64,000 bases of DNA from Escherichia phage JES2013. Every line of letters starts with the position of its first letter. The first letter of the stretch is position 1. The stretch lies in the sequence record KC690136. One strand, given 5' to 3'. Position numbers and translations under genes: made by a program. A model generated the notes under the pieces. The model ran no database searches and was not told the origin of the DNA. It worked only from the letters and a program-made list of their open reading frames with translations. This document shows positions 24,314 to 41,794 of this stretch, in pieces.

Positions 24314-26386
24314 TTATGAGAAGTCTGGCGGGACAACATCTTCTACATACCCTTTCAGAGCAACCTGCCCCATATGAAGCACGGTAGAATCTCTAGCGGT
24401 AACAGTGATGCTGTCAGACATTACTTGCGGGTATGCCCACACATACTGTTTTACCTCAGGGTATCTATACTCTATAGTTGCCATGTTTCCGCAAATACAT
24501 CTCCATAAAAATTCTTGGTAATTCCTAGTTGGGTCGTAGCCATATACCGGAGCAAGCTCTTTACTAGGAACGAACCCTGCAAGGTATTGTATTTCAGACG
24601 GTTGCCAACCTAACTTAACGATAGGTATGTTTACAGACTCTTTTGCCTTTTCAATACCTCCCTGCATCACCCAATCGTAGCACTCGGTGCAGAAGAAATC
24701 AAGAGCACCTGCTTCTTTTTTATATTGGTCAGCAAGGTTCAGCTTTTGCGTAAGCTCGGTTTCCATAATGGTTGGGAAAAACAGTAGAGCTGTCATCTGA
24801 GCTGATGCAGCGTGTGCCTTTATTGCCTTTGAAATAGCCGCAATACGAGCGCCAAGCTTACCACGACAAAATGCTACATACTTGTCGTAAACACCGCCAG
24901 TTTTAGGATCGTCAATAGTCCCAATATCTAATGCATACTCACCTGTCTCATCATAAAACGCCTGTTTTGTAGGGTAATCATAAATACAAGGTCTACGAGT
25001 ATCGGTATTGAACCACCACCACGGTTCACCAACCTGCATAATCACTGGCAGGTTGTTTCTCATAGCGGCTGATGCAAAATTCTTAAATACTGCCGTAAGG
25101 AAATTCATACCCTCTTCAATGGTTGGAGACAGGAGGTAGCTACAAGGTGTATACCCTGTTTTAGCGTAGTTATCGTTCCAGTCTCTTTGGGTCCATTCCA
25201 ACGGACAGGCATCGCTGTAAAGCTCAAAACTTACAGACTGCATAACGTCGAAGTTGTGTCGTTTGGCATTGTACATAAAATCATCATGCCATTTATAAGC
25301 TGCAGCGTTTAGCGCCCCTGTTCTGTTTATAGACCATTGGGTTCCTGACCATGTGTAGTCATAATAATGACTCATACCAACATAGTGGTTTATGGTTCCG
25401 GTATAGCCCAGACGCTTGATATTGTTCAACACCCTTAAAGGAGATACGTTCCACATATCGTCATATGCGGTGCAGATCCCGACGTCGTGCTCTTTAACCT
25501 GAATATTGTTAAGTTGCATCATTTTCCAGCCCGTGTCTGGCTGAAGCAGATCTAGGCGCAACTCACACTCTACATTTTCCGTTCTCGGGTCTGTGCTATT
25601 ACTTACCCAGTCTTTAGGCATAAGCGGTATTAAAATCCTTCTCACCTGCCGAGGATCAACACCCATCATGTTGTTGTTCTGATCCATCCCGACGCAGTCC
25701 TCGAAATCAATATGAATCTCTGCAACATTCTTATCCTCTGAGATGCTGACAGCATATTGAGCTAAAGGAACATAGATGATTGTGCCATCAACAAGGTCTA
25801 CAGTCATAATCATCTTTTCAGGAGTGGAGAAGTTGCTGGCATTGGTTATTGACATTCTGAACCAAAGCTTGGTGTTTCTCATCTCATAGTGATCATCAAA
25901 CCCAATACCGAAATGGTCATACTTGTCAACTGTTTCCCAAATGCACCCAGCCATACCTCCATATGTTCTTGACACTAAACGGTTAATACAACAGTTGTCA
26001 TCTGCAACAATACAGGTACTTTCAGTCTGCTGAGTGGTTGTAACCCAATATCTTGGGTGAAACATTCTCTCCTCAACAGTATCCCAGGATATCCTGTCAA
26101 GATTCTCATCTGAAACTATTGTACATTTCGCCCTTTGTGTCCCAATCATCACCCCTTGAGATTTTGATGAAAACTCCATAAAGAAGCTTCTTGGTAACCT
26201 GTTGGGTAATTTGTCAACAATTTCCACGGGGATCTCAATACTGGTTGCCCCAATTGGGATAGTTACATCGCCCTCAACATGATTATAATCCCTACCAGGA
26301 ACGGCAGTATCCTGAACTGTTCGGTAGTGAAACTGTGCAGCCATTGTAGAGTAATCACGGTAAGGTTTAAAAACAGCTGTTGCCAT
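24314..26386 (-). CDS. tail/baseplate-associated structural protein
   Basis: 690 aa, Trp/Tyr-rich. N-terminal segment GRDYNHVEGDVTIPIGATSIEIPVEIVD is Calx-beta-like. Confidence 0.35.
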   Translation of the reverse strand: MATAVFKPYRDYSTMAAQFHYRTVQDTAVPGRDYNHVEGDVTIPIGATSIEIPVEIVDKLPNRLPRSFFMEFSSKSQGVMIGTQRAKCTIVSDENLDRISWDTVEERMFHPRYWVTTTQQTESTCIVADDNCCINRLVSRTYGGMAGCIWETVDKYDHFGIGFDDHYEMRNTKLWFRMSITNASNFSTPEKMIMTVDLVDGTIIYVPLAQYAVSISEDKNVAEIHIDFEDCVGMDQNNNMMGVDPRQVRRILIPLMPKDWVSNSTDPRTENVECELRLDLLQPDTGWKMMQLNNIQVKEHDVGICTAYDDMWNVSPLRVLNNIKRLGYTGTINHYVGMSHYYDYTWSGTQWSINRTGALNAAAYKWHDDFMYNAKRHNFDVMQSVSFELYSDACPLEWTQRDWNDNYAKTGYTPCSYLLSPTIEEGMNFLTAVFKNFASAAMRNNLPVIMQVGEPWWWFNTDTRRPCIYDYPTKQAFYDETGEYALDIGTIDDPKTGGVYDKYVAFCRGKLGARIAAISKAIKAHAASAQMTALLFFPTIMETELTQKLNLADQYKKEAGALDFFCTECYDWVMQGGIEKAKESVNIPIVKLGWQPSEIQYLAGFVPSKELAPVYGYDPTRNYQEFLWRCICGNMATIEYRYPEVKQYVWAYPQVMSDSITVTARDSTVLHMGQVALKGYVEDVVPPDFS

Positions 26387-28679: not shown

Positions 28680-31600
28680 TTAGTCGTGAGACTCGTTCCA
28701 AGGTCCCTGGAAGCTTGAGTTAGAACGACTAACGATCACAGTAGGACAGGAGATTGTGACACCTGTCACGCTCGACGTTGACCACGGTGTGTAAATCTCG
28801 ATAACAATGTCTATAGTTTGTTCACCCAGACCTGTTATCCCTACCGCACACATGCCGTTGTTGTCGTTAAAATACTTCTTGCCAGCAAGGATCTGATGAC
28901 CAGCTATCCATACATTCAGTTGGGAGCTGGCAAGAGTACCATTCAGTTTAAAGAAGAATGTTACGTTCTTACCCTGACCTGAAACGTTATCTACGTATCT
29001 CCACCTCCAACGGCAAACCCTTTGCTGGGAGTTATATACTGGAGCACAATCTCCGTAAGTCCTGTGTGCAACAATCGCACCTTCGAACTGGTTAGCACGG
29101 ATAACAGAAGCTTCTACACGACCACGGAAGGTACCTCCGGTTGCATCTATGGTGCCTCTAAAGCTACCATTATTGGCATAAACATCACCACGGAAGGTAC
29201 CACTGGTGGCGTTAACTGCCCCTGTGAAGTTACCAGAACTGGCGTTGATGTTACCTTTCACCCACACATCCATAAATTGGGCGTGCCCGTTCTTGTTAAT
29301 ATACCAACCGTAGTTATGGTACCCGTTGCTATCGTAGTTGTTTGACGAAATTTCTTGTGCGATCTTGGCAGAGGAGATCGTGCCATTCTCTATAAAAGCG
29401 TCTTTCAAGAACGCTTGGTTATTCTTGATTGCGAAAGCAAGGGTTGCTGTGCCGTTACCAGGATTGTACACCGCAAAGTTGTTTGCACTAACCATAAAGT
29501 ATGATTGAACTTGTCCTCCAGACCCCTCCATGCCCAGCTGGATACCTGCCACATATTTATTACCATGGCTGTCAACCTGAATCTTAGCCCCCCACTGAGC
29601 ATCTATTTTACCCTCAAGTGTTGTTACAGCTTTAGAGGTATTAGATACTGTAGCCCTAAGCTCATCAATATTACCCATTTCGTCAACAATTTCTTGTTTT
29701 GCAGAGGTAAGTTCTTGACGGATCGCTGTGGCTGTATTATTAACAAGATCAACTGTTGTACTATTAGTTTCTTGAATAGATGCTTGCAGATTGGCAACCT
29801 CTTTCTGCACATCATCTTCCAGCTTGGTGATCTTCCCTGTAGCTGCCACCAGATCCTGCTTAATAGCTTCCGTTGTCTTATTTAGCAGGTCGGTTGTTGC
29901 CTTGTTGGTTTCTTGAATAGAGGAGTTAAGTTTGCTCTCAGTGTTCTTCAACTCTTCCCGCAGAGTACCTTGAGTTGCAGTTATTTGCTCACTCAATGCT
30001 TGAGTTTTACGATTAACAAGATCAACGGTTGATCTATTTGTTGTCTCGATTAGTGACCCAAGCCTACCAGACTCTGCTGCAAGTTTATCGTCAAAGGATT
30101 GCTGAGCTGCTACCAGCTTACTGTTAAGGGCAGAAATTTCTCCATTAACCCCTGTAAATTTTTCTGTCGTCTCTCTGACAACACCCTCTATTGTATCTCC
30201 AAGCTCTTCAAAAATGCTAGTAACACGGTCATTGACTGCACCAACATTTTTATCCATTTCCTTGACTGCATTATCGAGATTGGCGGTAAGCTCTTTATAA
30301 GTCTCTGTCTTTTTGAACTCAGCATCAATCTGCGGCATAAGATCTTCTATGGATGTGTAACAGTGGGCTGCACACTCCACAAAAGCAGATGAACCAAAAG
30401 CCTTTGTTGTCCTGATATACCAATAATAAATCTTATCGTTCTGCAGACCTTCAGATGTCCAAGTTGAACCAACACCCATACGAGTGGCTTTTGAAGTAAC
30501 GGTTGCATCACTGGTATCTGGCAATCTTGTCATCCCAGATGTCCAAAAGTCATATTGGGTGCTTACACTGGCCAAGTCTCTGCTGTGCGGGATCAGGGTA
30601 ATAGCAAAGTATCCCTGTTTAACTTCTACAGAAACCGGAGCCTCAGGTGCCTGAATGTTAAACTCACAGTATGCTTCTGGAGATACACCACCTTTATAAG
30701 ATGTTGCAACAACAGTGGCTGTGTAGGAACCTTTAGTCAGACCTTCAACACGGACAAACTGCTCAACTGTCTGCGCTGTCCAGACAATCTCTCCGTTTTT
30801 CCTGACCTGCACAATGTTTTGAGCATAAGTCCCAACGTTGTCCCAAGCCAAAACACCGTGAGTTACTTCTCCAGCTTGGAGAACGGAATATCTGAAGTTT
30901 TGCGGTTGAGCTACTCCAGATGGAGATATCGGAATATCTACATCGCCAGAATCCGGAAGTTGCCCTGTGGCATCATTCCACTCTTTAGCATCTTGACGAA
31001 GTTTTACCTTGACACCACCCTTTTTGGTAAACTCCCATTCAAGAACTCTCATTTCTTGGCCCACTATACCAATACTTGGGAGGTCCATTGTAACGTAACG
31101 ACCAGGTTTAAATTTGAAACCTCGCATATTGCAGGTGACTTCAATAATCCTGCCAGCTCTGGCACGTCTTAGGAAGATTGCAGAAACACGTTGAGCTTGA
31201 TAAGGACTGGTAACAAAGCGATAGTCTATATCGATTATCTTTCTTTCTCCATCCTTCTCTATCCACTCTGGGACAAACACTGATGGAAAATCTGTTTCAG
31301 AATACCCTTTGGTCGGACTAGTGAATCTGCCAGTTATTGTGTTGGATCTTTTGTCAAATGAGGCTTCCGGATAGATCTTGACCTCACCACAGACACAATC
31401 CTCACTCAGCGTCATTGTTGCCGGGCCATAGTATGCACCAACCAGCAAACCATACTTACCAGCTACATAGCTGAGATCTGCGCCACAAGCTTTCAGCATT
31501 TCTGCCATAATGCTTGCCGGAGCCTCGTCCATGTCAAACTCGCCATTAATGGTGTATCGGCGCTCACTGGTTCCGTCTGCGTTTTTTACCGCCTCGTCGC

Positions 31601-32279
31601 ATATGTTAGCAGCCTCCTTGAAGGACTCCCAGTTGATGGTTTCGTCAGGACATTTAAGGTACGTTCTTAAATAGTCTAGAATCACCAAGGCCGCGTTATT
31701 GGTATACACCTCTTTACTGATACGAGGATCATAGCATTTTTTACCAACCTTGACAAGTGTAACGTTTGGCAACCCAAAAGGAAACTTGTTAGGGTCAAAC
31801 CTGAAGCTGGCACGTAGCCAACTGATCCCTCTACCTATCATGTCGGGTGACCATGATGGGCAGTGTGTACCCATGAAAGGATCAGATGTTTTTCTGTCGT
31901 TATGTAGCTCCCACGATACCAGATCTCCATACGAGGAAATAGGATTACCGTCGATAAGTATATCTTCTACACCTTCCAGAGGGTGATTGGCAAGAACAAT
32001 AGCACAATGGAGGGTTCTGTCTCTGTCCTGCTCCAAAAACGCAAGCAATCCAGACGTACGTGTCTTACCATACACTACAGAGCAAGGTGCAGCAGAAGAT
32101 CTGAGAAGCTTTTGTCTATCTTGCTGACTTCTGTAAGATTTGTTGCCCTCAAAAATCTTATCCAGAGTTCTGGTGGTAACAGTGTTCAGGCTGTCAGCCA
32201 GAGCTGCCTTGGATGCGTTCCAGTCATAACTTGAAGATCTTGCAGAAGCAACGATGTTATCAATCATTGCAATTGGCAT
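28680..32279 (-). CDS. large tail fiber / host-specificity protein with FN3-like segment and coiled-coil stalk
   Basis: 1199 aa. Repeated TTDLLNKTTEAIKQ / TTVDLVNNTATAIRQ heptad blocks; FN3-like beta region; N-terminal third resembles the central part of J-type tip proteins. Confidence 0.45.
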   Translation of the reverse strand: MPIAMIDNIVASARSSSYDWNASKAALADSLNTVTTRTLDKIFEGNKSYRSQQDRQKLLRSSAAPCSVVYGKTRTSGLLAFLEQDRDRTLHCAIVLANHPLEGVEDILIDGNPISSYGDLVSWELHNDRKTSDPFMGTHCPSWSPDMIGRGISWLRASFRFDPNKFPFGLPNVTLVKVGKKCYDPRISKEVYTNNAALVILDYLRTYLKCPDETINWESFKEAANICDEAVKNADGTSERRYTINGEFDMDEAPASIMAEMLKACGADLSYVAGKYGLLVGAYYGPATMTLSEDCVCGEVKIYPEASFDKRSNTITGRFTSPTKGYSETDFPSVFVPEWIEKDGERKIIDIDYRFVTSPYQAQRVSAIFLRRARAGRIIEVTCNMRGFKFKPGRYVTMDLPSIGIVGQEMRVLEWEFTKKGGVKVKLRQDAKEWNDATGQLPDSGDVDIPISPSGVAQPQNFRYSVLQAGEVTHGVLAWDNVGTYAQNIVQVRKNGEIVWTAQTVEQFVRVEGLTKGSYTATVVATSYKGGVSPEAYCEFNIQAPEAPVSVEVKQGYFAITLIPHSRDLASVSTQYDFWTSGMTRLPDTSDATVTSKATRMGVGSTWTSEGLQNDKIYYWYIRTTKAFGSSAFVECAAHCYTSIEDLMPQIDAEFKKTETYKELTANLDNAVKEMDKNVGAVNDRVTSIFEELGDTIEGVVRETTEKFTGVNGEISALNSKLVAAQQSFDDKLAAESGRLGSLIETTNRSTVDLVNRKTQALSEQITATQGTLREELKNTESKLNSSIQETNKATTDLLNKTTEAIKQDLVAATGKITKLEDDVQKEVANLQASIQETNSTTVDLVNNTATAIRQELTSAKQEIVDEMGNIDELRATVSNTSKAVTTLEGKIDAQWGAKIQVDSHGNKYVAGIQLGMEGSGGQVQSYFMVSANNFAVYNPGNGTATLAFAIKNNQAFLKDAFIENGTISSAKIAQEISSNNYDSNGYHNYGWYINKNGHAQFMDVWVKGNINASSGNFTGAVNATSGTFRGDVYANNGSFRGTIDATGGTFRGRVEASVIRANQFEGAIVAHRTYGDCAPVYNSQQRVCRWRWRYVDNVSGQGKNVTFFFKLNGTLASSQLNVWIAGHQILAGKKYFNDNNGMCAVGITGLGEQTIDIVIEIYTPWSTSSVTGVTISCPTVIVSRSNSSFQGPWNESHD

Positions 32280-32716
32280 TAATACCTCCAGACATCAACA
32301 ACGATAGAATCTTTCATGTCGAACATAAAGACCCCTTTATCACCTTTCGCCCAAATCTGGTTGTTCCAGAACACACCAGCGGTGAGCCCGTTCAGACCTT
32401 CGAAAATGACAATATCTCCACGCTGAACCTGTTTAGGAGTATCCAGCCGAGTCATAAAGAGATCAAAAATAGTAGGCAGGTGTGTAGTTTTGAAACGAAG
32501 CATGCACCATCTTTTGCTTTCCAACTCTGTTTTATACGTTCCTTCGAAGTTGGAAAGAAAATCTGTTCCGTATTGGGCATCAACACACTTAGCCGCAAAG
32601 GTGCAACAATCGTGGAATCCCCATTCAAAAGGTATGGTGGCCTCTTCGTCAAACACTTTCCACAATCTTTCTTGCCAATCCACTAAACGAGGGTGTGTGC
32701 TCATTAAACCTCCCAA
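32279..32716 (-). CDS. small tail-tip assembly protein, NlpC/P60-like Cys motif (tentative)
   Basis: 145 aa with FHDCCTFAAKC; sits immediately upstream of the large fiber gene. Confidence 0.3.
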   Translation of the reverse strand: MGGLMSTHPRLVDWQERLWKVFDEEATIPFEWGFHDCCTFAAKCVDAQYGTDFLSNFEGTYKTELESKRWCMLRFKTTHLPTIFDLFMTRLDTPKQVQRGDIVIFEGLNGLTAGVFWNNQIWAKGDKGVFMFDMKDSIVVDVWRY

Positions 32717-33270
32717 ATGATCGGGCGGCTCGCCACCTGATCCACATATTTAAAAAATCTGTCATTATCGTTTCTTGAGCTGTGGCTTTCCTCCGTGTAC
32801 CGATAAGGAAAACCTCTTAACCAACTATTGAAGATGGAAGAGATGGATATGGACAAAGCACTATTCTCCCCTGTCTGAATAGCCATATCTGTTATAAGGC
32901 CGTCAAACAAGCCATTAGTTGTGACAGGCAGACCATTCTCCATAGCGGTAATGTACAACGTGGCACGACAACCGGAATACTCCGTCTTCAGAAGATCACC
33001 CACATACTTAGGATCAAACCCGTTCAATGTCGCTACCACAGATCCGAAGTTGGTGGCATCTTTCTCAGACACAGCAGTTAACGTTGCTGATCCACCTATC
33101 CCTATAAAATGTTGCCCCTCAATTACTACAACACCAGTGCCTGAGCACACCCTGACAGTTCCTGTCGGTAGCTCCAGCTTTGCAGCAATTAAGATCTCAA
33201 CACCATCAAGCTCCAGCTTTTCAAGAAATAAATTATCTAATGGCGCTCTGATCATCTTAGAAATCCTCAA
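32704..33270 (-). CDS. minor tail protein (hypothetical)
   Basis: 188-aa ORF overlapping neighbours by 13-14 nt. Confidence 0.35.
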   Translation of the reverse strand: MRISKMIRAPLDNLFLEKLELDGVEILIAAKLELPTGTVRVCSGTGVVVIEGQHFIGIGGSATLTAVSEKDATNFGSVVATLNGFDPKYVGDLLKTEYSGCRATLYITAMENGLPVTTNGLFDGLITDMAIQTGENSALSISISSIFNSWLRGFPYRYTEESHSSRNDNDRFFKYVDQVASRPIIWEV

Positions 33271-33847
33271 AGAAGTTGATAACTATATTATCACCTTTTT
33301 GCATAGCATCGACTTTTTGCTTAATTTTATAAATATCTCTGATATGAAACCTACCCTTCGGGGATTGAGTTATTATCTTCATAGTGTCCCCTGCGGCAAT
33401 AGGTTTTCTAAGTCTTGGAGATATGCTTATAACAGCAGACCCAACACCATCGCTACGCACTGGAGCTGTTACCACTTTCAATTCATCATTGACAGATATT
33501 TTATCCCCAGCTCTGGCTATGTCTCTGTTTGGCTCCCACCCTACCGTCTTCAAAAAATCGTCGTTACCAGTAGGCCCAAGGGCGATTGGCTCATTAGCTG
33601 TTACCGAGTGACCGTAAGTTTTAATAAGAAAGATGTTTCCATCTTTATACACCTGATCAACAAAGCTCTTAAGCTCTAGCAACTGTGACTCGCTGATATT
33701 GGAGACCGTCAAAGTGCCTTTCCAGTTAGGTGTGGCATAGGTTACTTTTTGCGTTTTACCTGTAAACGGACTTTTAAACGTAACAATATCTGCCAGCAGC
33801 TCCAATCTAATATCTGGAAGGTATCTAGGCCTTTCCCATAAAAACAT
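33257..33847 (-). CDS. minor tail protein (hypothetical)
   Basis: 196-aa ORF. Confidence 0.35.
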   Translation of the reverse strand: MFLWERPRYLPDIRLELLADIVTFKSPFTGKTQKVTYATPNWKGTLTVSNISESQLLELKSFVDQVYKDGNIFLIKTYGHSVTANEPIALGPTGNDDFLKTVGWEPNRDIARAGDKISVNDELKVVTAPVRSDGVGSAVISISPRLRKPIAAGDTMKIITQSPKGRFHIRDIYKIKQKVDAMQKGDNIVINFFEDF

Positions 33848-33910
33848 TGTGCCTCCAGGTTAAACAATCATGATAGTTATTTTACCAGATTTTAAGTTAA
33901 TACGCAATAC

Positions 33911-33939
33911 AAACAAAAAGCCCCCGCCGAAGCGAGGGC
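33911..33939 (-). terminator. rho-independent terminator
   Basis: GCCCCCGC-CGAA-GCGAGGGC hairpin followed on the minus strand by TTTTTGTTTG; lies just after the stop at 33947. Confidence 0.55.
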
Positions 33940-33946
33940 AAAACAG

Positions 33947-36900
33947 TTACTTCAGTTTCTCTTGCAACCCAGTAACAACCTCTGTCAATTTTTTAACCTG
34001 CTCCTCAAGGTCGGTTATTTTATCGTCCTGTTCCCTGCAAACCTGGACAAGCAAGCCTGTTACAGCTGCGTAATCCACGCTGTAGAATCTTTCCTCTGTT
34101 ATCAAAGGAGTTCCATCTTGATCAGGGTTTGGGATTTCCTTTCTTTGCACGAAAGAGCTAACTGCTTCCGGCAGCGCTTCAAGCACTTCTTGTGCTATAA
34201 CACCTGCATAAGGCATACCGTTCTCTTTAAGAGTGTAAGTATAACCCTTCATCTTCCGGATAGCTTCTAACGCATCAGGAATAACAGCTATGTTATCTTT
34301 CAGATCTCTGTCAGAACTCTGATTGACAGATGTGCAATTCACAGCGCCGTTTACAGAAAGATATCTTGATTTATCTGGCAAGGTACCGCAATGCCATACC
34401 CAATTTGATTGAGACTCGTCAAGAACCTTAAACTCTAACACGTTTGGACGATCTCCTGTGCTGCCGTTACCCCAATAATACATATGGGCGGCATTAGCAG
34501 GCATGTTGCCACCGTTATTAGTAACATGACTTCCAGAAATATATACCTTTAACTCTGGGGTTGGTATTTCCCCTTCCGGGGTTGTTCCTCCATACCTGAA
34601 GCTAACACCATTACCACCTGTTTGGGTCCACGGGCCCCAAGTGAAGACCTGTTTCACCATATTCCCATAACGTGTAAATCTATCGCCATGGTAGGTAATA
34701 TATTCTTGAACACACCCATCACCGTTATTGGCGTTATTTTGCAACACAATAAGTGTTCCGGCCTCATTTACGGGATAATGACGATCATATGTTGCATCAT
34801 TATTTGCAGGCTGATGGTAAATACCTTCCCACAATCCGTGATAGGTGTTAAGGTCTGAAGAACCAAGACCTTGACCCCTGTGTTGCATAGCCTTATTCCA
34901 GGGATGGTGATTACCACCTTCTATAGACCTGGTGTATAAGTTACTTTGTCTGCCAGCAATCTGGAAAGCGTAGTTTCCCGAGAATCCTACAGATAACCCG
35001 CCTACAACCATGGTATCTTGTGGGCCGTTAACATTACCAGCTATTATTTTTGACGGGTTGTTAGGCCCAAACTGGTTGTTCCAGTCTGCACCCGTGTGGC
35101 ATACAAAACCGCCCGGAGCTGAGAAAGTGCCATCTTTGTTGAAGTTGTAGAATCTATGAGCTGTGCCTACAACATCACGAACAATAACTTGAGCAGCTTC
35201 TGGAGTAGATCTGAACTCTGCCTGTCCTTGCAGTCTTGCACCATTACCACATTTAGAGGTAAAGGTGTTGTTGATCAGATCCTCTGTTCCTTCCGACGCA
35301 GCCTGGAACCCTGCATTAGAGAACAGTGCTTTTCGAGTGGTCTGACTACCAGGGCAAAGGTAGTCAATACCGTCTGCCCATAGCTCGACTTTAGGCATAT
35401 TCATTTTGCTCATCACAGCATAGCGTTCAGCAGTGCCTATATAGTGCCACTGTGTGCCGCCACCAGTGTAGAACCCTGAAGTACCTTTGAAGTCAACAAT
35501 AGGTCTGGTATTGGTGTTGTTATCTCCAAGAACAGCGAGATTCAAATCTGCTGACTGGAGAGGTGCAACGAACTTAACACCGTCCTGATTGTTTGTTACA
35601 GAGCCGACCTGGTAATCTTGCTCTCTGGTAAACACTTCGACAACATTTCTACTTGCGTATATGCTGACAGGGAAAGCACGAGCCTCTACATAGAAAGCAA
35701 CATACTCTTGTTTACCCCTTGTTGGAGCAACCATCCCAAGAAGTGCTTTTTCATTCTGGTAGAAATTTACTACCCCGTAGAAAGAGTCTCCTCTGTCTGT
35801 CCAACCACCAGTCCTATAGTGACACTGTAAGGTAGCACAGTTCATAGGGTCATTTCCAGATGACGATCTGGTAACTATGGTAATATCAGTACCAGTTGCT
35901 GGAGCATAGTACGGATCTGTTCTAACGATGATCGGGTAGTATTTCCCATCTTCCATCCCTGCGGTTCTTGGCAGTGTTAAGAAGTCTTTCACACCTGCTG
36001 CTATAGGAACTTTGAACAGATTCTGAGCATCTGCTAAAGTTGTAGCCCCAGTACCACCTGCGGCTTGAGGTAAAGGTTCCCACTTGGCCTTCCGGTTGTT
36101 ATAAACACCCCATTCCAGAGTGCCGTTACCGGATTCGTCCATCCCACCATCCCAGACAACCATCTTGGCGGCTTTCTTGGACCCCCAGAAGCCTCTTTCT
36201 GCCCCTGAACTACGGATCCATTCTCCAAGACCCCAGTTTGTCAGCTGACCAGTAAGATCCCCAACCTGCATGTATTTAGGGCAGTCTAACACGCCATCTT
36301 CGCGGAAACCTAAATATCTATGAGTTTCAGATCCTTTTGCACCTTTGTGCAGGTGGATTGTCAACCAAGCCTTATTGTCGTTTCTTACCTCAGAGTAGAT
36401 CCTATATCCATGCTCAAGGACACCGTCAGCGCTGTATTTGTCCCCGTTAACAATACCTGATGCTGACTTAACATCAGCAGAACTTTGAGACAGGTAAAGG
36501 TGCCCAAAGGTAGGGGAGTTTCTAGACCCGAGACCGATGTGCGCTCTAAAGGTATCATCGTTACGAGGTCTGACCATCGGCTGCCATGCAGTCCACTGAT
36601 TTGTGTTGGCCTGATAGGTTCTTAAATACCAAACATCTACGTTAGAGAATGGATAGTATTCCTGACGACAACCTGTACCGCCGTTAGCATTGTTCTGCCA
36701 AACAATCAGGTGACCAGCACCAGAACCTGCAGGGTAACCATTTGCCTCAGTTGCATAAGCAGTCATCGGCTGGTAGTATACACCATCCTGATTACCAGTC
36801 AAGTTATTGATATTGAAATTTGGCTCAAGGGCTGCACGTTGCTTATAGAAAGCACCGATATTGATACGGACTCCAGCGGCATCTCTAGCCCCTGTGCCGC

Positions 36901-37765
36901 CTTGCTCTATAGCAAGAGGTTGCCACGAGGCTGTTTGTTGGTTCCACATACCCCAACGGCCTGTTGCGTCAAGCTGCAAGTACCCTGCCGTGTTTAAATC
37001 ATCTCCAGCACGGATAACTGTTCTTGTTGGGTTGTTTGCCTCCAGGCGTTTAAATTCATCACGAAGTGCTATTCTTTTCGTTGTTGCTACACCGTTGGTT
37101 ACTGCAATGGTGTACATGGCTCCGGTGGTAGCGCCACGGAAAATACCATCAACAGTTGTAGTATCACGACGAGATACCACACCGTTCAGAAATTTTTCAC
37201 CAGCTGCTGCAGAAGGGTAGTTGGTAGTTCTTCCCTCTTCAATAACTGCAGGGCCAACAAAGTTATCAAGGTGAATAACATCGCCTACAGTGTGCACTGT
37301 ACCAAAATCTACACGCTGTGCAAGTGCTTTGGCATCGTTAGCTGTCTGAACAGTAACATCCATTACATCCTGGACAGACTGCCCTTCGGCTGTCATGATC
37401 ATAGATGCGCCAATGGTAGATTCCAGCTCCTCCCTTAAGGACGGGTCTGTATATACCGTCCATGCAGCGTCAGTAATCCCACCATCGGAGTACGGTGAAG
37501 ACAATGCAGGAACAGTGTGCGGAAATTCGCCTTTCCAACGCAGGTAGAGGTCTTCCTCTTCGAAGTAGGCAAAATCCATTGGGCCGTTTAACTTACCACC
37601 TTCCTTAAAGGAGATTACATGAGAAACAGTCCCATCAACATGGACAACATCGCCAATTTTTACACGACGGGTCAGGTCTGGTTGTTGAACAACCAGGTAA
37701 TCATCCTCTGTCACTGCGGTAGTGGCAGGAAGAGATTCAATTCTGACAACTTTAATATCAGCCAT
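33947..37765 (-). CDS. tailspike / tail fiber with N-terminal anchor domain and C-terminal intramolecular chaperone (peptidase S74-like)
   Basis: 1272 aa. C-terminus SDRDLKDNIAVIPDALEAIRKMKGYTYTLKENGMPYAGVIAQEVLEALPEAV is S74-chaperone-like. N-terminus is homologous to that of 40400..41068. Confidence 0.6.
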   Translation of the reverse strand: MADIKVVRIESLPATTAVTEDDYLVVQQPDLTRRVKIGDVVHVDGTVSHVISFKEGGKLNGPMDFAYFEEEDLYLRWKGEFPHTVPALSSPYSDGGITDAAWTVYTDPSLREELESTIGASMIMTAEGQSVQDVMDVTVQTANDAKALAQRVDFGTVHTVGDVIHLDNFVGPAVIEEGRTTNYPSAAAGEKFLNGVVSRRDTTTVDGIFRGATTGAMYTIAVTNGVATTKRIALRDEFKRLEANNPTRTVIRAGDDLNTAGYLQLDATGRWGMWNQQTASWQPLAIEQGGTGARDAAGVRINIGAFYKQRAALEPNFNINNLTGNQDGVYYQPMTAYATEANGYPAGSGAGHLIVWQNNANGGTGCRQEYYPFSNVDVWYLRTYQANTNQWTAWQPMVRPRNDDTFRAHIGLGSRNSPTFGHLYLSQSSADVKSASGIVNGDKYSADGVLEHGYRIYSEVRNDNKAWLTIHLHKGAKGSETHRYLGFREDGVLDCPKYMQVGDLTGQLTNWGLGEWIRSSGAERGFWGSKKAAKMVVWDGGMDESGNGTLEWGVYNNRKAKWEPLPQAAGGTGATTLADAQNLFKVPIAAGVKDFLTLPRTAGMEDGKYYPIIVRTDPYYAPATGTDITIVTRSSSGNDPMNCATLQCHYRTGGWTDRGDSFYGVVNFYQNEKALLGMVAPTRGKQEYVAFYVEARAFPVSIYASRNVVEVFTREQDYQVGSVTNNQDGVKFVAPLQSADLNLAVLGDNNTNTRPIVDFKGTSGFYTGGGTQWHYIGTAERYAVMSKMNMPKVELWADGIDYLCPGSQTTRKALFSNAGFQAASEGTEDLINNTFTSKCGNGARLQGQAEFRSTPEAAQVIVRDVVGTAHRFYNFNKDGTFSAPGGFVCHTGADWNNQFGPNNPSKIIAGNVNGPQDTMVVGGLSVGFSGNYAFQIAGRQSNLYTRSIEGGNHHPWNKAMQHRGQGLGSSDLNTYHGLWEGIYHQPANNDATYDRHYPVNEAGTLIVLQNNANNGDGCVQEYITYHGDRFTRYGNMVKQVFTWGPWTQTGGNGVSFRYGGTTPEGEIPTPELKVYISGSHVTNNGGNMPANAAHMYYWGNGSTGDRPNVLEFKVLDESQSNWVWHCGTLPDKSRYLSVNGAVNCTSVNQSSDRDLKDNIAVIPDALEAIRKMKGYTYTLKENGMPYAGVIAQEVLEALPEAVSSFVQRKEIPNPDQDGTPLITEERFYSVDYAAVTGLLVQVCREQDDKITDLEEQVKKLTEVVTGLQEKLK

Positions 37766-40399: not shown

Positions 40400-41068
40400 T
40401 TAGATAGCTCCTGCGATAATCAGTGCCCCGTACCAAGTTAACCCGTTGTCGTAGGTTTCCAACTTGAAAATGTCTGTTGCACCAGCTGTAAATGTTAGGA
40501 TAGGATCTCTTCCGTAGGACCATTTAACATTACCAGGCCAATAGACTTTGTTGCCGCCAGAGGTCTGAGTAATGCATACGGTTATAGTTCTCGCCACCCC
40601 TTCAAGACCTTCTGTTTGATTTTCAAAAGAGATTGTGGTATTTGAAGTTAGTCGAACTTTAAAGGTATCCGCAACTTCAAGATCCATATCAAGCTGACCA
40701 CCGATAGATCCGTAATCAACTATTCTGCCAGAAGAAGTTGCAGCAAGCTCACCAAAAACAGACCAGGCATTTGCAGACACACCCCCAGCACCCTCTACCG
40801 TGGAGTCTGGGAGGATTATTTTAGGATAATCCCCGTTCCACGTGTAGTAGCGCTTAGTTTCTGGATCATAAGCAAAGTCCTTCTTGCTCTTAAGATAACC
40901 ACCCTCTGTGAAATAGACTATCTTAGTAATGCTAAGATCGTTGACAACATCGTCAATCTTAGCCTTTCTTGTCCCATCAGTCTGGTTGACAACCAAGAAG
41001 TCATCACTCAGGACTGTTTCTGCATCTTCAAGATCTGGAATTGGTATTGTAGGATAAGCTACAGCCAT
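40400..41068 (-). CDS. tailspike anchor/adaptor protein
   Basis: 222 aa. N-terminal ~90 aa (DDFLVVNQTDGTRKAKIDDVV...EGGYL...DFAY) align with the N-terminus of 33947..37765. Confidence 0.5.
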   Translation of the reverse strand: MAVAYPTIPIPDLEDAETVLSDDFLVVNQTDGTRKAKIDDVVNDLSITKIVYFTEGGYLKSKKDFAYDPETKRYYTWNGDYPKIILPDSTVEGAGGVSANAWSVFGELAATSSGRIVDYGSIGGQLDMDLEVADTFKVRLTSNTTISFENQTEGLEGVARTITVCITQTSGGNKVYWPGNVKWSYGRDPILTFTAGATDIFKLETYDNGLTWYGALIIAGAI

Positions 41069-41077
41069 GATTTCTCC

Positions 41078-41794
41078 TTAGTTAACATCAATAGCACGAC
41101 CAGACTGGTTGGCAATAGCCTCGTCATTAGAGGTAGCAATAACACCAGAGTATTCGCGCTCATCTGGAGCAAGCGTCCAGGTATTGCGGTTAATGGTTTG
41201 TTCTGCCTCAGTCATCAGCAGATCTTTATCCTGAGTCAACAGAGAGCCTACAGGGATCGGGTTTTCCATCTCAGGACCAGCATACTGGTTCCACCATGTG
41301 GCATCTCCGGTTCTAGGCAACCTGAAGTTGATCAGATAGTACAGTTTATTAGCCCACTTAATCCAACCCTCATCATCACAGAGAGAGGTTGTCCCAGAAT
41401 CAGGCTGTGGGTAGGTGAACTGATCAAGACCTACGAAAGCCAGCCTTACAATCTCGTTCTCTTTGGTAACAACCTCAAAGAACGCTTGGTATGTTCTCGA
41501 TCTTCGATCCATGGTAGACTGGAAGTTTATGATGTTTAGCACATCCGGCTCTTGTCTTGCCACTTCCATAATCTTGTTATCAAGAACAGTCTTCATGACC
41601 TTCTTACTGAGAAAGTCCATATAAGGGAAGCCAAACAACTCGTCAAAGTACCAGCTCCCCTTCCACGTATTAAACCTCATCCACAAGCGCTGGCGCAGAC
41701 TTACCTGGTTTGAATCTATCAACTCAAGACCTTTGTCTATCGCCAAATCACCTGTCTGTGGGTCCATCAATATATCACTGTAAAGCGTAGCCAT
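41078..41794 (-). CDS. baseplate protein (hypothetical)
   Basis: 238-aa ORF adjacent to the spike gene. Confidence 0.35.
   Translation of the reverse strand: MATLYSDILMDPQTGDLAIDKGLELIDSNQVSLRQRLWMRFNTWKGSWYFDELFGFPYMDFLSKKVMKTVLDNKIMEVARQEPDVLNIINFQSTMDRRSRTYQAFFEVVTKENEIVRLAFVGLDQFTYPQPDSGTTSLCDDEGWIKWANKLYYLINFRLPRTGDATWWNQYAGPEMENPIPVGSLLTQDKDLLMTEAEQTINRNTWTLAPDEREYSGVIATSNDEAIANQSGRAIDVN

Follow-up and report, generated by a model that had tools for sequence, protein, structure and literature searches.

The intramolecular chaperone of phage T5 consists of a loop, an alpha/beta hairpin and long hairpin "tentacles" set around a central trimeric coiled coil (PMC4690869). Its Ser1264, which is both the scissile and the catalytic residue, is activated by Lys1269 according to a mechanism transposed from phage K1F, and the mutation S1264A prevents auto-proteolysis (PMC4690869). 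Closer to the phage considered here, the C-terminal domain of rV5 gp41 (1272 amino acids, aa) was reported to match 3GW6, the chaperone of the K1F endosialidase, by HHpred and to contain a coiled coil according to PCOILS, and PF13884 is listed for this protein in Table S3 of the same study (Kropinski et al., 2013; PMC3606486). Others located pfam13884 at residues 1151-1200 of rV5 gp41 and found LL12 gp41 to be devoid of it (Piya et al., 2020; PMC7229145). We describe here the corresponding lateral tail fibre gene of Escherichia phage JES2013, which lies on the minus strand of a stretch of 64,000 nucleotides (nt) of sequence record KC690136, hereafter the window. Since the Peptidase S74 domain and its likely removal were already known for rV5 gp41 and for orthologues of the BASEL collection, the current understanding of this fibre is left unchanged; what the present analysis covers is the presence of the domain, its catalytic dyad and the conservation thereof, its fold class, and the orthology of the protein to rV5 gp41.

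The last 122 residues of the JES2013 fibre protein are a true Peptidase S74 domain and very probably constitute a functional, self-cleaving C-terminal intramolecular chaperone. The original prediction, made from the sequence alone, had assigned a domain of this kind to the end of a 1272-aa "tailspike", and the assignment is borne out by matches to Pfam, to the PDB and at the level of the fold. The gene and the parts of the domain are located as follows:

33947-37765, minus strand: entire gene of the lateral tail fibre, 1272 aa and stop codon (from the list of open reading frames)
33950-34315, minus strand: C-terminal intramolecular chaperone domain, aa 1151-1272, with a predicted released fragment of 122 aa and 13.7 kDa
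34160-34315, minus strand: Peptidase_S74 profile core, aa 1151-1202, including the motif of the original prediction (Pfam, profile positions 1-57 of 58)
34313-34315, minus strand: codon of Ser1151, the predicted nucleophile, with which the released fragment would begin after cleavage of the S1150-S1151 bond (alignment with K1F and T5)
34298-34300, minus strand: codon of Lys1156, predicted general base of the Ser-Lys dyad (alignment with K1F and T5)
34076-34162, minus strand: long beta-hairpin, aa 1202-1230, predicted equivalent of the T5/K1F chaperone "tentacle" (AlphaFold2 strands, residues 102-110 and 122-130 of the modelled segment)
33953-34072, minus strand: predicted C-terminal amphipathic helix, aa 1232-1271 (AlphaFold2 helix with high confidence, heptad pattern)

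The search with a hidden Markov model (HMM) that had been proposed as a check was positive, PF13884 (Peptidase_S74, "Chaperone of endosialidase") being recognized with 52.1 bits (E = 8.1e-14) against a gathering cutoff of 22 bits. When compared to the PDB with phmmer, the C-terminal 167 aa retrieved the chaperone region of S16 gp37 (6F45, E = 1e-5) and the intramolecular chaperone auto-processing (ICA) domain of MyRF (7DC3). The domain reaches the last residue of the protein, i.e., its extreme C-terminus, and the 49-aa string initially quoted in its support was recovered exactly at aa 1154-1202 (nt 34160-34306). The interval first delimited, 33947-34400, does hold the domain, but it also includes the stop codon and 28 residues of the mature tip (aa 1123-1150), the domain itself starting at nt 34315. 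Read on the plus strand, this interval contains only short shadow open reading frames (ORFs) with stops. A custom S74 HMM identified only one S74 domain in the window and in the fibre locus of phage MaxBurger, and with Pfam no S74 match was obtained in the eight further tail ORFs of the window included in the scan. A second candidate, at the C-terminus of the gp44 orthologue (about 41084-41209, minus strand), was proposed by the custom HMM with an independent E-value (i-E) of 0.09 (YSGVIATSNDEA versus YAGVIAQEVLEA); this match is most likely due to chance and was rejected because Pfam gives no support to it even at E ≤ 1.

The predicted catalytic serine and lysine were found as S1151 and K1156, within a motif (SD..[LIVM]K, here S1151-D-R-D-L-K1156) that occurs only once in the protein. 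Both residues are conserved and align with the validated pairs of K1F (S911/K916) and T5 (S1264/K1269). Conservation was assessed with 31 homologues sharing 42-92% identity (32 sequences with the query), mostly short fragments from E. coli prophages that are adequate for this purpose and for the AlphaFold2 alignment, though not for full-length comparison. K1156 is invariant in the 32 sequences and S1151 is present in every homologue covering that position. Conservation sets in abruptly a few residues before SDRDLK, the upstream tip regions being divergent.

The fold points in the same direction. An AlphaFold2 monomer model of aa 1101-1272, built from the homologue alignment, reached a mean predicted local distance difference test (pLDDT) value of 72.6, with 85-93 in the C-terminal helix. 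In this model, S1151 is followed, in this order, by a loop, the alpha/beta unit (aa 1165-1197), the long beta-hairpin and a 40-residue helix, an arrangement that agrees with the T5 chaperone and is characteristic of the S74 fold. Hydrophobic residues occupy 8 of the 11 a and d heptad positions of the helix; three such helices would make up the coiled coil at the centre of the chaperone. The coiled-coil tail of the original prediction is hence present, as an integral central helix of the chaperone rather than as an additional element. Among structures of the PDB, the top ten Foldseek matches are chaperones only (3GW6, 7DC3, and 3GUD). Moreover, no separate gene for tail fibre assembly or for a chaperone was found adjoining the fibre gene, which we count in favour of a built-in chaperone. 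That the resemblance might reflect chance or composition, for instance a generic coiled coil in a protein without any S74 domain, is refuted by the Pfam match (52.1 bits), the conservation among homologues and the fold match, so that virtually no weight can be given to it; the similarity to S74 is far beyond chance.

Cleavage is predicted to occur at S1150|S1151, by analogy with Thr1263|Ser1264 of T5. It would convert the unprocessed full-length fibre protein of 139 kDa into a mature subunit of 1150 residues (computed mass, 125.7 kDa) and a 13.7-kDa fragment. That the domain acts as a chaperone, that it is cleaved off and at which bond this occurs are suggested by the experiments performed on K1F and T5 and by cryo-electron microscopy (cryo-EM) of a 96%-identical orthologue. 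The peptides that relate to this processing are the following:

YLSVNGAVNCTSVNQSSDR: tryptic peptide spanning the predicted cleavage site
DNIAVIPDALEAIR, EIPNPDQDGTPLITEER, FYSVDYAAVTGLLVQVCR and LTEVVTGLQEK: peptides of the predicted released fragment
YLSVNGAVNCTSVNQS: predicted non-tryptic C-terminal peptide of the cleaved fibre

The claim that the mature protein is shorter than its ORF receives indirect support from MaxBurger. According to the RBPseg paper (2025, PMC12143355), the MaxBurger fibre RBP_11 ends in a peptidase S74 domain and the virion cryo-EM map exhibits no density there, "as expected". As only one S74 domain is present in the window and in the MaxBurger fibre locus, we infer that RBP_11 (class TC12) corresponds to bas54_0027, whose product shares 96% aa identity with the JES2013 fibre protein. 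In rV5 virions, all eight gp41 peptides obtained by mass spectrometry map to aa 434-1073, upstream of residue 1151 (PMC3606486, Table S5). Since the fragment accounts for 6 of the 52 detectable tryptic peptides, none of eight would fall within it by chance with P ~0.38, and these data are consistent with cleavage yet statistically uninformative.

This last figure is one of several points that weigh against a functional, self-cleaving chaperone, some of which would suit a domain that remains uncleaved and is kept on the virion as a permanent C-terminal trimerization cap. Cleavage of the window protein and of rV5 gp41 is predicted by analogy, and a retained cap would fit with this as well. It would also fit with the fact that the Arg/Asp "folding sensor" of the neighbouring subunit in K1F and T5 (Arg1250/Asp1239 in T5) could not be located by alignment, because the segment preceding the cleavage site resembles S16 gp37 instead and is not reliably alignable with K1F and T5. 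Among homologues, R1134 is not conserved; R1106, a candidate for the sensor, is largely conserved (consensus WGxSxR) but lies 45 residues upstream. The MaxBurger maps have a resolution of 7-9.5 Å, at which a flexible distal domain could be invisible too, and the equation of RBP_11 with bas54_0027 is our own deduction. In addition, the P1 residue is Ser, and not Thr as in K1F, and varies among homologues. Finally, TM-scores to the templates are low (0.3-0.5) and the monomer model is of moderate confidence; such low scores are expected from a monomer model of an intertwined trimer. An intact Ser-Lys dyad, which the homologues share, speaks against the retention of the domain, and each characterized member with such a dyad does cleave (K1F and T5; PMC4690869). 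Likewise, none of the rV5 virion peptides derives from the fragment, with the chance probability given above, and the orthologue map lacks density for the domain. A permanent cap therefore appears quite unlikely.

Self-cleavage being preferred, the maturation of the fibre could proceed as follows. After translation, three chains would associate via the chaperone, the C-terminal helices making a trimeric coiled coil and the beta-hairpins embracing the adjacent tip domain, and this association would make the distal part of the trimeric fibre start to fold, in register. When the tip has reached its correct fold, Lys1156 would activate Ser1151 for attack on the S1150-S1151 bond, with release of the 13.7-kDa chaperone. 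The virion would carry the 1150-residue, 125.7-kDa subunit, whose newly exposed tip (aa 1050-1150) would be free for contact with the host surface. In T5, it is the cleaved form alone that competes for binding. The trimeric state is presumed from homology and from cryo-EM of orthologues.

The protein that bears this chaperone belongs to the lateral tail fibres; its N-terminal anchor is of the tailspike type, but it is not an endosialidase-type tailspike. Its gene, an ORF of 3819 nt on the minus strand, shares 97.4% nt identity with rV5 gp41, and identities of 97-98% were obtained with E. coli O157 typing phage 14 and rV5 gp41. About 120 Vequintavirus records are at least 80% identical to it at the nt level, and 75 phage records reach at least 80% for both coverage and nt identity. 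These identities indicate that the window belongs to an rV5-like myophage (Vequintavirus). As in rV5 and MaxBurger, with which synteny is kept, the fibre gene stands between the orthologues of gp42 and gp40. The family phrog_6578 ("tail fiber protein") matches the whole protein (aa 1-1272, 1732 bits, E = 0), and its orthologue in BASEL phages is labelled "lateral tail fiber protein". The nearest full-length relatives are the lateral fibres of T5-like and T1-like phages; the long tail fibres of some T5-like phages (NBSal005, Kenya-K16) share about 34% identity over aa 168-1267. Besides Peptidase_S74, Pfam recognizes a single domain in the whole fibre protein:

37457-37630, minus strand: Tail_spike_N (TSP1/Gp66-type) N-terminal attachment domain, aa 46-103 (Pfam PF18668, E = 2.8e-10)

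The PDB matches 9occ, 9lna, 9d84, 4qnl, and 5w6h are confined to this region, and neither Pfam nor the PDB sequence search revealed any enzyme domain (sialidase, beta-helix, or other glycan-degrading) in the 1272 aa. The matches to tail fibre families, together with the lack of an enzyme domain, are the reason for preferring the term lateral tail fibre, and the initial label "tailspike" is retained for the N-terminal anchor only. Some 18-25 records named "Campylobacter phage" (e.g., MG065658, MG065661, and MG065682), with C. jejuni as host, contain a fibre gene about 96% identical at the nt level. Their host labels look doubtful and could reflect, for example, co-isolated coliphages or mislabelling.

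The role of the fibre after chaperone removal may also be viewed differently. The chaperone would still be cleaved off, but the main effect would be to uncover the site at which a separate gp38-like adhesin docks, as in the gp37-gp38 system of S16, and the fibre itself would not bind a receptor. This was proposed for the MaxBurger orthologue by the RBPseg authors (PMC12143355), and the segment around the cleavage site indeed resembles S16 gp37 (NGAVNCTSVNQSSDRDLK versus GGAIYCRDLNVSSDRRIK). However, no gp38-like sequence was found in the 64-kb window, which comprises the whole fibre locus but about half of the genome, so that an adhesin gene may lie outside it; gp38 of the Gelderlandvirus Melville yielded a best tblastn E-value of 0.36 and nothing with phmmer. 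Moreover, the genes directly downstream encode a Dit-like protein and a J-type tail-tip module, and the cryo-EM map has no adhesin density. The closest full-length relatives, the T5-like and T1-like lateral fibres, are for their part described as contacting the O-antigen (PMC8594841). An adhesin docked on the cleaved fibre is accordingly very unlikely, and a self-cleaving chaperone on a fibre whose own tip contacts the host remains our preferred reading.

Within Vequintavirus, two alleles of the fibre exist. Homology to the LL12 type amounts to 56% in aa 952-1049 and ends after aa 1049, so that the tip and the chaperone (aa 1050-1272, 33950-34618) behave as one exchangeable cassette:

34316-34618, minus strand: distal tip of the mature fibre, aa 1050-1150, forming with the chaperone an exchangeable C-terminal cassette (homology break with LL12 alleles)

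In LL12 (MH491969, 2501-7272), the allele encodes 1479 aa, lacks an S74 domain and terminates in a head for which a weak ConA-lectin signal was obtained. An extra ORF of 110 aa (gp40, CPT_LL12_040, phrog_1361, of unknown function) comes next, its start overlapping the fibre stop, whereas the window harbors only a 99-nt gap at this place (33848-33946) and no such ORF. This ORF is a speculative and rather unlikely candidate for an unrecognized stand-alone fibre chaperone that would replace the intramolecular one; if true, the locus would be an experiment of nature in which in-cis and in-trans folding of the fibre have been swapped. Similarly, the 13.7-kDa chaperone trimer might, after its release, play a second role in the infected cell. 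Neither a chaperone encoded by the LL12 ORF nor such a second role would add a new property to the S74 domain.

In many E. coli chromosomes there are genes for 254-aa "tail fiber domain-containing proteins", made of a short tip and an S74 chaperone about 50% identical to that of the window (homologues P0021, P0025, P0026, P0029, P0034, and P0036 in our alignment); the tip and chaperone cassette therefore circulates widely among prophage side fibres. Further upstream in the protein, a focused comparison disclosed an internal duplication between aa 318-373 and aa 971-1025 (36647-36814 and 34691-34855, minus strand), the two copies being 46% identical over 56 aa, among them QNNANGGTGCRQEY and QNNANNGDGCVQEY; a self-BLAST of the whole protein detected no internal repeat at E ≤ 1e-3. 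The duplication may correspond to the repeated "mobile pseudo-domain" that the RBPseg paper ascribes to this fibre class. Its second copy ends just before the point where the alleles switch.

Several neighbouring sequences are worth mentioning in their own right. A strong terminator-like hairpin (33920-33939, minus strand), with an 8-bp stem containing 7 G-C pairs, a TTCG loop and a T-run, lies 8 nt past the fibre stop and before the next gene. No terminator is given for the corresponding position in the rV5 reference record, and terminator-like sites are no more numerous in the region than in shuffles. The gp43 orthologue (222 aa, 40400-41068, minus strand) carries the same Tail_spike_N domain (PF18668, E = 2e-10) as the N-terminus of the fibre, which points to a branched or shared mode of attachment, as in CBA120 and G7C, phages with several tailspikes. 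On the other side of the fibre gene, the orthologues of gp40 to gp37 (28680-33847, minus strand) form a siphovirus-style tail-tip module within a myovirus fibre locus, composed of a Dit-like protein (phrog_1302), a tail protein (phrog_2048), a DUF6950 protein and a lambda-J-like protein of 1199 aa with Ig_J and Phage_Tail_Tip domains. Further away, a 690-aa protein (24314-26386, minus strand) combines the TIM-barrel and N-terminal domains of a non-contractile tail sheath (PF23845, E = 1e-79, and PF23844) with Calx-beta. It occupies the position of MaxBurger bas54_0034, which is labelled "lateral tail fiber with glycosidase and deacetylase domains", and BASEL ties deacetylase-domain fibres of the bas54_0034 kind to the recognition of the enterobacterial common antigen.

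In practice, the consequences are limited. For annotation and mass prediction, the mature fibre protein should be taken as 1150 aa long (125.7 kDa). If the receptor-binding tip is to be produced as a recombinant protein, aa 1151-1272 must stay in the construct for correct trimer folding, and in fibre swaps aimed at host range, aa 1050-1272 (tip and chaperone) are to be handled as a single cassette.

As to known systems, MyRF, with its ICA domain (7DC3), is a eukaryotic membrane-bound transcription factor that has no fibre cargo and whose cleavage frees the N-terminal part for nuclear entry. The chaperone of the K1F endosialidase endoNF (3GW6; Schulz et al., 2010) shares about 18% identity with the window protein in the aligned C-terminal region and carries a longer insertion separating the alpha/beta unit from the hairpin. 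It serves a sialidase tailspike whose stalk is a triple beta-helix; the cargo is here a fibre tip without sialidase domain. T5 pb1 reaches about 27% identity in the aligned C-terminal region and exhibits no significant similarity to the full window protein in pairwise BLASTP; it is a distant family member only, full-length homologues being found in other T5-like phages. The distal long tail fibre subunit gp37 of Salmonella phage S16 (6F45), which ranks first among the PDB sequence matches of the chaperone region, shares with the window protein the cleavage-site context C-x-x-x-N-x-S-S-D-R-x-x-K and the C-terminal helix. In the S16-related phage Melville, the gene that follows gp37 encodes a gp38-like receptor-binding protein, of which no equivalent was found in the window. 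Closest to the window protein are rV5 gp41 (YP_002003543) and its Vequintavirus orthologues, the same gene in an unchanged position, with 1272 aa and identities of 97% (nt) and 96-98% (aa). Between MaxBurger and the window, the chaperone region, which starts at S1151 in both, differs by one residue. From the rV5 gp41-type orthologues the window protein differs by point substitutions only, mostly in aa 660-800, and the S74 feature is alike in all of them.

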